Below are positions 1 through 1,354 of a stretch of DNA of 45,057 bases, piece after piece; positions within the stretch are counted from its first letter, which is position 1, and every line of letters begins with the position of its first letter. The DNA is taken from sequence record PP925821.1; one strand, given 5' to 3'. The position numbers were made by a program, and so were the translations under genes. Under the pieces are notes generated by a model. That model had not been told where the DNA came from. It made no database searches and was given only the letters and a program-made list of their open reading frames with translations. The DNA comes from Escherichia phage Eeyore.

Positions 1-687
1 ATGGGGAAAGGGGACTTCACTTTTTACGCGGGGAAATACGTTTTTATCGGCGATAGCTTTGAGTTTCGCAACCCCATTACCTGTCAAAATAGCATCAGCG
101 CATCTGCAAAAATAGCGACCACTGCTGATATGGAATGCAAAACTAAAATCGCTGTTTTGGCACCGGCTGACAATCAAAATGCCCATGTATGGTTCTATGG
201 CACAGGTGGGGCATCCAGGGGGGTTATTTATTCCGGGCAAACAGGAATTATTCAGATCCGTCCCGACAATAATGATAACGGCGGCTCCAACGGATACTCT
301 TTTGCATTTGGGGCCGATGGTAAGTTTACCTGCGTCACGATGAACCAGACCTCAGATGAGCGAGTAAAATTCGATAAAGAGCCCGTCAGTAACGCTCTGG
401 AGAAGATTTGTTCCCTGACGGGTTATACGTTCGGCATTCAGCTCACAGAATCTGAGTCGGTACGTAGCGCAGGCATCATCGCACAGGAACTGGAGCAGGT
501 TCTGCCGATCGCTGTGAGTTCTGGCGGCACCGGAACAACACCTGCAGGAGAGGAAATTAACGATCTCAAAACCGTGGACTACAGCGCAATGAGCGCCCTC
601 TACGTTGAGGCAATCAAGGAATTAACCAACCGGTTGAAAAGTGTTGAGAGCGAACTTACTGCAATACGTGACCGCTCAAACGCTTAG
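1..687 (+). CDS. Tail-fibre alternative C-terminal cassette 2 (3' part), with peptidase-S74-type intramolecular chaperone domain; 5' part appears to be 44902..45057
   Basis: Frame-1 ORF from position 1. Motifs TSDERVKFD...GYTFGIQ...GIIAQELEQVLP...VDYSAMSALYVEAIKEL match the autoproteolytic chaperone domain of tail fibres/endosialidases. Stop TAG 685-687 overlaps the stop of the convergent cassette (TTAG). Confidence 0.6.
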   Translation: MGKGDFTFYAGKYVFIGDSFEFRNPITCQNSISASAKIATTADMECKTKIAVLAPADNQNAHVWFYGTGGASRGVIYSGQTGIIQIRPDNNDNGGSNGYSFAFGADGKFTCVTMNQTSDERVKFDKEPVSNALEKICSLTGYTFGIQLTESESVRSAGIIAQELEQVLPIAVSSGGTGTTPAGEEINDLKTVDYSAMSALYVEAIKELTNRLKSVESELTAIRDRSNA

Positions 688-1337
688 TTTCTTGTCTTAT
701 CTTCTAAAGCCCCGACGCGGATTGCCAGGGCTTTTATCGCGGCCAGCGCATCGAGCAACATGGGGGTCTGGTCGAGATGCAGCAGGCCGCCAATATCTTT
801 GACGTATTCAGGGTCGATAGTTTCAATCTGCTGAGATATCACCCCGCGCCGTGGGGTCTGCGTTTCATCATCCTTAAAAGTGAAGTGTTTGAACTCCATC
901 CGTGAAATGTTGCCCAGCGCCTCTTCTGGATCGAGGTCGTCACCAATATTTTTCATAATTCTGTCTGAAACTGCAGACGTCATTATCTCCTTCCATGGGC
1001 TCCATGTATCAGTGTTGTAACCCCTGAAAAAAAACCTTCCCGCATCAGTTTTGTTGGCATACGGCAAGCAGAACTGCGTCAAGGCTACATCAGGAATACG
1101 AACATAATTTTGAACATACCCATACCAGCTGGTGATAGGTCCTGAAGTTGATTTCGCCATATCTAACAGCAAACGATATGTACCAGGTTCAGTCAGGGCA
1201 TTGAAATTTGTCCCGTCAGGAGCAACTGCCATATCTGTTTTAAAGGCTCTGGCATCACCAGTTGGCAACCCGAATGCCCCCACCTGCATGACGTTCCCGG
1301 CTGCGCCGCCTGCATCCAGCGTGGCGCTACTTCCCAA
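684..1337 (-). CDS. Tail-fibre alternative C-terminal cassette 3 (inverted, promoterless), S74-like chaperone domain
   Basis: ORF begins at TTG; the open frame continues to 1349 through the gix-like site, encoding IKVGLGSSAT, the same junction peptide as the other cassettes. C-terminal VSDRIMKNIG...GVISQQIETIDPEYV...LLDALAAIKAL resembles S74 chaperone domains. Confidence 0.5.
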   Translation of the reverse strand: MGSSATLDAGGAAGNVMQVGAFGLPTGDARAFKTDMAVAPDGTNFNALTEPGTYRLLLDMAKSTSGPITSWYGYVQNYVRIPDVALTQFCLPYANKTDAGRFFFRGYNTDTWSPWKEIMTSAVSDRIMKNIGDDLDPEEALGNISRMEFKHFTFKDDETQTPRRGVISQQIETIDPEYVKDIGGLLHLDQTPMLLDALAAIKALAIRVGALEDKTRN

Positions 1338-1354
1338 ACCGACCTTTATTCACC
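1321..1354 (-). repeat. gix/hix-like recombination site C (inverted orientation)
   Basis: Reverse complement ggtgaataaaggtcggtttgggaagtagcgccac; first 23 nt identical to 44897..44919. Core tcggttt resembles the Mu gix core AAACCTCGGTTTA. Confidence 0.6.

Follow-up and report, generated by a model that had tools for sequence, protein, structure and literature searches.

The tail-fibre gene stf of Escherichia phage Eeyore (PP925821.1) probably belongs to a multiple-inversion system of the Gin/Min type, in which a constant stem is re-tipped by cassettes that end either in an S74 chaperone domain or in a PF25670 module, and in which no tail-fibre assembly (Tfa) gene takes part. The window, meaning the whole 45,057-bp stretch of DNA analysed, is the circularly permuted genome of a phi80-like lambdoid temperate phage. 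The evidence consists of domain identities, crossover sites, reading frames and the inversion states observed in relatives. In the mechanism proposed, the constant N-terminal part of stf (Sc) ends at a gix-like site, four promoterless cassettes, each a single open reading frame (ORF), could be joined to Sc in frame, and an adjacent serine invertase would swap the DNA at the TC core between oppositely oriented sites. The S74 domain is carried by cassettes 2 and 3, the PF25670 module by cassettes 1 and 4.

S74 chaperone domains of cassettes 2 and 3

The two S74-type cassettes occupy the following positions.

44911..45057, plus strand: first 49 codons of cassette 2, the frame being open across the window ends and resuming at position 1
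1..687, plus strand: codons 50-277 and stop of cassette 2 (Pfam PF13884; alignment with S16 gp37)
352..684, plus strand: S74 chaperone of cassette 2, with a predicted cut between Ser (352-354) and Asp (355-357) and the dyad Lys at 367-369
684..1340, minus strand: cassette 3, 218 aa (Pfam PF13884)
968..687, minus strand: S74 chaperone of cassette 3, with a predicted cut between Ser (968-966) and Asp (965-963)

Both cassettes match the Pfam profile PF13884 (Peptidase_S74) above its curated cut-off of 22 bits, cassette 2 with 43 bits (E 5.5e-11, cassette residues 167-221) and cassette 3 with 34.1 bits (E 3.4e-8, residues 125-181). The significant S74 hit on which an earlier note on this DNA had staked its proposal of intramolecular chaperones is thus present in both. 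The motifs quoted in that note can be read as SDERVK, GIIAQE, VDYS and EAIKEL in cassette 2 and as SDRIMK, GVISQQ and AAIKAL in cassette 3. The overlap of stop codons that it described is likewise found, with TTAG at 684..687 comprising TAG at 685-687 on the plus strand and TAA at 686-684 on the minus strand, so that the cassettes lie tail to tail. Its placement of cassette 2 within 1..1349 holds for content and not for coordinates, as the cassette begins at 44911 and crosses the window ends; the interval 1..1349 contains just codons 50-277 of cassette 2, the complete cassette 3 and crossover site C. The reading frame that opens at 44911 stays open over the junction of 45057 with 1 and on to 687, and E. 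coli prophage DNA spans the same junction in one aligned piece. The uninterrupted ORF and the contiguous E. coli homologues identify the window as circularly permuted.

Structural and enzymatic relatives are consistent with this domain assignment. Cassette 2 matches the distal long-tail-fibre protein gp37 of S16 (6f45, E 2.6e-9); where its segment MNQTSDERVKFD is aligned with LNVSSDRRIKKD of gp37, the Ser and Asp line up with the cleavage motif 'SSDRRIK'. Cassette 3 matches T5 pb1 (8hqz) and the ICA domain of MyRF (7dc3), and its chaperone part shares 40% identity with the one in SU10 gp13. The Ser-x4-Lys dyad is kept in both cassettes, as S167-DERV-K172 in cassette 2 and S125-DRIM-K130 in cassette 3. 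The catalytic dyad of K1F endoNF is S911/K916 (PMC8326128); the K1F sequence has S at residue 911 and K at 916, and S-D-x3-K recurs in every S74 cassette and relative examined. Both S74 domains reach within a few residues of the stop codon of the tail-fibre cassette. Cassettes 2 and 3 therefore share with known S74/ICA proteins (endoNF, T5 pb1, GA-1 gp12, S16 gp37, EP335 gp13 and MyRF) the Ser-x4-Lys dyad and the extreme C-terminal position, with the GIIAQE-type strand and the C-terminal helix likewise conserved. They differ in lying in promoterless cassettes that are expressed only after inversion, and their cleavage is predicted.

As judged by their sequences, the S74 domains of cassettes 2 and 3 are not recent duplicates: a forced global alignment gives 31% identity, and BLASTP returns no match between the two cassettes at E 1e-3. 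NCBIfam has no match for any cassette.

By homology, the C-terminal S74 chaperone of cassettes 2 and 3 would drive trimerisation and then cut itself off after the conserved Ser, leaving a short receptor-binding tip. The predicted fragment shed would be 110 aa (~11.9 kDa) for cassette 2 and 93 aa (~10.5 kDa) for cassette 3. The nearest relative cleaved in experiment is EP335 gp13, which is cut between Ser621 and Asp622 (PMC8217332).

PF25670 modules of cassettes 1 and 4

44096..44905, plus strand: cassette 1, currently expressed; linker, variable knob, PF25670 module (44438..44836) and terminal helix
1346..2134, minus strand: cassette 4, 262 aa; linker, variable knob, PF25670 module (1813..1412) and terminal helix

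The remaining two cassettes end, as had been stated, in a different conserved module, now identified by Pfam as PF25670 (Phage_tail_C_2; E 1.9e-60 for cassette 1 and 1e-57 for cassette 4). The matches cover profile positions 1-132/133 of 133 and lie at the protein C-terminus. Module plus tail are 78% identical between the two cassettes and the variable part ahead of the module 34%. Cassette 1 also matches the sequence of PDB 7z47 (SU10 gp12) at E 1e-70. An AlphaFold2 model of the module only, built with two subfamilies (pLDDT 77, pTM 0.71), shows a beta-sandwich followed by a C-terminal helix, and the modelled sandwich resembles the C-termini of T1-type fibres. PF25670 is probably a distal knob that is retained on the fibre, where it may help folding or bind a receptor. 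The phage isolates Flotzy and HK639 each have a single, non-invertible PF25670-type fibre with neither a partner gene nor an invertase, the HK639 module being a divergent member (~30% identical).

The helix behind the module varies in nature. In the CX15 prophage (L001, 6520-6600, minus strand), and also in those of L002 and MSB1_9D (L004), a TAA ends the PF25670-type fibre after ..VRVEMPADSL. This stop removes a terminal helix of ~20 aa (YNQKLRA..DEGE) that is retained in window cassettes 1 and 4, and the remnant of the helix past the stop is still readable up to the next crossover site. Given this natural stop in the CX and MSB1_9D prophages, the helix is probably dispensable.

Crossover sites and invertase

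43619..44095, plus strand: constant N-terminal part of stf (Sc, ~159 aa), an ORF matching PHROG 1591 'tail fiber protein' (E 1.5e-175)
44082..44107, plus strand: crossover site A (..ACAAACC TC GGTTTAGGAAGT..), the constant/variable junction
44897..44922, plus strand: crossover site B (..AATAAAGG TC GGTTTGGGAGAC..), its left half overlapping the last codons and stop of cassette 1
1329..1354, minus strand: crossover site C, the same as site B over GATGAAGGTGAATAAAGGTCGGTTTGGGA, its left half being the 3' end of cassette 4
2123..2148, minus strand: crossover site D (..TATAAAACG TC GGTTTAGGAAGT..), adjoining the invertase gene
2214..2768, plus strand: Din-family serine DNA invertase, 184 aa (Pfam Resolvase, E 3.4e-45, plus HTH_7)

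In its present state, stf extends over 43619..44905 and encodes 428 aa, with Sc fused to cassette 1. Hundreds of Enterobacter and E. coli proteins with differing C-termini share the N-terminus of Sc at 92-98% identity, and database proteins also join the ~160-aa stem to PF21882 (gp53-like_C) and PF07484 (Collar) C-termini. These fusions point to Sc as an all-purpose adaptor that accepts tips of at least four kinds.

Sc is followed by the motif N-L-G-L-G, encoded by ..AAACC TC GGTTTAGGA.. at site A, the core of which (AAACCTCGGTTTA) is the Mu gix core, identical over 13 nt. Sites B and C are identical across 29 nt. Exactly four copies of the 11-mer TCGGTTTRGGA are present in the window (at 44094 (+), 44909 (+), 1342 (-) and 2136 (-)), and allowing one mismatch reveals no further site there. 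The four gix-like sites lie two per orientation, share the TC core and are each in frame with Sc. Every cassette opens with the right half of the site, TC followed by GGTTTRGGA, which encodes G-L-G. The invertase shares 59% identity with Mu Gin across 181 aa and retains the catalytic motif YxRVSTxDQ. The locus has in common with the Din family a Gin-related serine recombinase with a C-terminal helix-turn-helix and inverted gix-type sites sharing one central dinucleotide.

A simple model in which inversion takes place between oppositely oriented sites yields 12 arrangements, and all four cassettes reach Sc. Cassette 2 lies two steps away from the present state, and cassettes 2 and 3 never separate.

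Inversion states in relatives

One prophage, inserted at yciI-tonB, is present in different inversion states in CX15 and CX07, two clonal strains of E. coli. CX15 expresses a PF25670-type fibre; in CX07 the same stem is fused to a cassette-2-like S74 cassette that is 90% identical to cassette 2. The left halves of the sites are unchanged and the right halves are exchanged exactly at the 2-bp core, a pattern that, read from the sequences, is the signature of a serine invertase. At the junction of stem and cassette 2 in CX07 (L002, ~4999-5002), the core is TT (..caaacc TT GGTTTAGGAGAT..) rather than TC, on comparison with site 7319 of CX15 (L001); such a mismatch could impede inversion back and so fix CX07 in the S74-type state.

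Other genomes display further states. E. coli LR536430 expresses the stem fused to a cassette-3-like S74 cassette, and Enterobacter hormaechei B56 has Sc fused directly to a cassette-2-like one. In an Enterobacter kobei prophage (~92% DNA identity), the block of cassettes 4 and 3 is inverted relative to the window and cassette 4 (99.6% identical) is expressed. Cassette 4 is moreover 100% identical to the C-terminal part of Sc-fused Enterobacter and E. coli proteins of 421-431 aa.

Twenty-eight loci identified with the constant part were examined, in Enterobacter, Buttiauxella, Pseudocitrobacter, Citrobacter and others. S74 and PF25670 cassettes are mixed next to an invertase at six of them, and the Pseudocitrobacter vendiensis locus has the same two-plus-two make-up as the window; this recurrence makes the mixture a trait of the family rather than a peculiarity of the window phage. 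Other loci have S74 cassettes only or PF25670 cassettes only, and four (L026, L032, L033 and L036) have a fixed stem-S74 fibre without an invertase. At one Enterobacter kobei locus (L039, 7917-8995), ~1 kb of unrelated DNA lies between tail-to-tail cassette-3-like and cassette-2-like cassettes, with a called ORF of 244 aa that has HHH_5 and RNA_pol_A_CTD-like Pfam matches; in the window, cassettes 2 and 3 overlap by 4 nt instead.

About nine of the 28 species-representative contigs end at a crossover site (L011, L013, L018, L019, L022, L028 and L031 among them), and many database fibre entries are 'partial' proteins of 158-163 aa that stop at this site (P0005, P0016, P0025 and P0046, for example). 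Partial proteins and broken contigs alike are expected if assemblies break on a mixed population, and mixed inversion states are probably the cause of such a systematic break.

The same relatives bear on the idea that the S74 cassettes are silent or decaying spares, rarely expressed or no longer cleaving. Cassette 2 is two inversions away from the present state, the TT core of CX07 could hold Sc and cassette 2 together, and in the Enterobacter phage FRphi, which is compared below, only one of three isoforms infected the tested host (PMC13418256). Both window ORFs are nevertheless intact and conserve the Ser-Lys dyad and the motifs downstream of it; intact homologues exist in other genomes (77-91% identical for cassette 2, 88% for cassette 3), several of them in the expressed position; and the fixed stem-S74 fibres persist where there is no invertase. 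We regard silence or decay of these cassettes as very unlikely.

Fibre maturation in the absence of Tfa

The earlier note saw no separate tail-fibre assembly gene, and the searches agree. Searched by tblastn with lambda Tfa and Mu U/U', the complete window gives a best E of 0.4, Pfam and PHROG scans detect no Tfa in the neighbouring ORFs, and the 28 related loci contain no Tfa homologue at E 1e-4. A Tfa-dependent fibre has an assembly gene downstream of each C-terminus; the window has none. Of the two maturation strategies that the earlier note envisaged, the S74 strategy is supported, and the second is defined only by the absence of S74 and Tfa. In the mechanism favoured here, the PF25670 beta-sandwich knob and short helix of cassettes 1 and 4 would be retained as the distal end of the fibre, and a Tfa-type chaperone gene would not be required for either kind of cassette.

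Terminal beta-sandwich knobs of trimeric fibres commonly fold unaided. This argues against a reading in which the PF25670 cassettes need a helper in trans, either a host chaperone or the products of two ORFs between J and stf (42225..42527 and 42524..43165), so that the contrast would be between a chaperone in cis and an unrecognised one in trans rather than between a chaperone and none. All relatives examined have both ORFs (PHROG 7961 and 4524; DUF8377) conserved upstream of stf, and the monomer model of the complete cassette 4 is poor. Recombinant EP335 gp12, which by homology to SU10 gp12 would end in PF25670, bound no host, and a missing chaperone was given by the authors as a possible reason (PMC8217332). 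Yet the two ORFs are present whatever the cassette type, even at the invertase-free stem-S74 loci, and have no similarity to Tfa. A helper in trans is accordingly unlikely. The two ORFs are on the plus strand, and in relatives they always sit between the J-like gene and stf; their products are candidate factors for attaching or assembling the fibre.

Several observations weigh against inversion of self-sufficient cassettes in this phage. The window displays one inversion state only, inversion having been seen in relatives and not in the exact sequence, and an exact-sequence look-up of the window Stf protein returned no record. The left half-sites of B, C and D are degenerate, reading AAAGG or AAACG against AAACC. 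Autocleavage and trimerisation of the S74 cassettes are predictions from homology. For PF25670, Foldseek gave no significant PDB match to the model, so its proposed role rests on position and a weak fold resemblance, and AlphaFold2 with a shallow alignment modelled the complete cassette 4 poorly (pLDDT 55). The single infective isoform of FRphi further implies that not every cassette need function on a given host.

Comparison with known inversion systems

Inversion of stf cassettes as proposed here resembles the systems of Mu (Gin), P1 (Cin), e14 (Pin) and p15B (Min) in its gix-like site, AAACC TC GGTTT, at the constant/variable junction of a fibre gene and in an invertase gene beside the invertible DNA. 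Min, with more than two sites and many isomers, is the closest in logic to the four sites of the window. The Mu, P1, e14 and p15B systems have Tfa (U/U') genes, however, which the window cassettes lack; each of the latter is a single ORF with an S74 chaperone in cis or a PF25670 knob. The hosts also differ, being a phi80-like siphovirus here and a myovirus or plasmid in the four classical cases.

FRphi of Enterobacter sp. BIDMC93 has a Gin-driven 'tail fiber protein shufflon' with three C-terminal isoforms, described in a 2025 preprint and in Nat Microbiol in 2026 (PMC13418256). Switching was shown there by long reads, gin deletion and locked isoforms; related loci have up to six paralogues, and the authors noted assembly problems at the locus (PMC13418256). 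Compared by its published description, FRphi is alike in being a lambdoid temperate phage of Enterobacteriaceae with one N-terminal part, alternative C-termini and a downstream gin. It has three isoforms to the four of the window and carries fliC-tldR downstream, which the window does not. The FRphi paper makes no mention of chaperone or S74 domains (PMC13418256), and a full-text literature search found no paper combining intramolecular chaperone, tail fiber and invertase.

The R64 shufflon likewise shuffles C-terminal segments of one surface protein by multiple inversions. It uses the tyrosine recombinase Rci, sfx sites and the PilV pilus adhesin, whereas the window has a serine invertase, gix-like sites and a phage fibre. 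The word 'shufflon' in the earlier note is thus apt for multiple inversion, given the four in-frame sites, the Gin-like invertase and the states of relatives, and loose as an R64-type term, since Rci acting on sfx repeats is not found here.

Relationship to the kuravirus two-gene fibre

In SU10, PF25670 forms the end of gp12 (E 1.3e-60), and S74 that of gp13 (E 6.5e-12), the product of the gene that follows. This kuravirus pair, which corresponds to EP335 gp12/gp13 and phiEco32 gp14/gp15, has its genes in an order that mirrors the sequence of cassettes 1 to 2 and 4 to 3 in the window. SU10 gp12 is reportedly called 'proximal' in the paper on that phage. The kuravirus genes encode two separate proteins of a two-part (SU10) or branched (phiEco32) fibre, in contrast to the alternative single-ORF cassettes of the window. 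Kuravirus gp13 starts at a codon of its own and has an N-terminal docking part, the latter missing from cassettes 2 and 3, and kuraviruses have no invertase. Use of PF25670 as a docking platform for an S74-bearing distal subunit was considered and rejected: in phiEco32 and DT57C fibres the gp13-type N-terminus docks to the middle of the partner fibre and not to its C-terminus (PMC4728585), and the PF25670-type fibres of Flotzy and HK639 are partnerless.

The shared order, PF25670-ended and then S74-ended, nonetheless allows a reading in which cassettes 2 and 3 are translated on their own as distal or branch subunits and dock on a PF25670-type fibre. Such a two-gene fibre would have two real states only, cassettes 1 plus 2 or 4 plus 3, as in Sv-U/Sv'-U' of Mu. 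A TTG codon with AAGG ahead of it lies inside sites B and C, and cassettes 2 and 3 stay together throughout the inversion model, both points in favour of this reading. Cassettes 2 and 3 begin, however, with the same in-frame G-L-G site as cassettes 1 and 4, and the first 27 aa of cassette 3 are 78% identical to the start of cassette 4. Sc is naturally fused to cassette-2-like sequences in CX07 and E. hormaechei B56 and to a cassette-3-like one in LR536430; neither window cassette matches the N-terminal docking part of gp13; and Flotzy and HK639 have no partner gene for their fibres. A separately translated subunit is, on this balance, extremely improbable, and the reading retained is that of alternative single-ORF tips on one stem.

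Genomic context

The tail region of the window is 94-96% identical to those of phages Flotzy, LLS, phi80 and mEp213. Megablast of 1..2800 against the phage collection returned a short invertase match only, so the cassettes are poorly represented among sequenced phage isolates.

Positions 3840-3885 (tggtcggcacgagaggatttgaacctccgacccccgacaccccatg) are the reverse complement of a tRNA-Pro 3' end and adjoin the integrase gene (4021..5214). They match the tRNA-Pro gene beside the related prophage of E. coli MSB1_9D (L004, 4217-4293), and ARAGORN calls no complete tRNA gene for this tRNA-like stretch. By sequence, it looks like the attP core of an excised, circularised prophage. Between invertase and attP, DinI-like and UmuD-like genes are among 2811..3293 (minus strand), 3174..3413 (plus strand) and 3413..3733 (plus strand); relatives L014 and L023 have full umuDC at that position.

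Between the tail genes and stf, 43130..43492 on the minus strand encodes a predicted lipoprotein of 120 aa (PHROG 25729), conserved both in Flotzy and in the E. kobei prophage. The exclusion lipoprotein gene cor takes its place in related E. coli prophages, and the window gene may be an analogous exclusion gene.

Implications

The switch is an ordinary member of the Din-family tail-fibre inversion systems already described. The domain-level point, S74 against PF25670 ends in inversion cassettes, seems to be absent from the literature, but ordinary Pfam annotation of such a known type of system leads straight to it. No new question is opened, since S74 domains, Gin inversion and the mosaic nature of fibres are firmly established. 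What is added to the Gin/Min paradigm and to FRphi-type shufflons is a detail, that chaperoning in cis, or none, would replace the Tfa gene.

A broader scheme can be put forward tentatively, although we consider it doubtful. Self-contained folding ends may let the family use single-ORF cassettes without Tfa, S74 being the cleavable version and the PF25670 knob plus helix a second, retained trimerisation nucleus. The cassette pairs might descend from a kuravirus-like two-gene module, captured when the second gene gained a gix half-site at its 5' end.

Inversion at the locus would account for the Enterobacter and E. coli prophage assemblies that break there. Once mature, S74-type tips would fall short of the ORF-predicted size by ~10-12 kDa. 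Most useful among the by-products are the tie to kuravirus gp12/gp13 and the question of what the PF25670 knob does. For annotation and phage engineering, the cassettes would be portable, self-sufficient host-range modules, in which one ORF re-tips the stem and no partner chaperone is needed.

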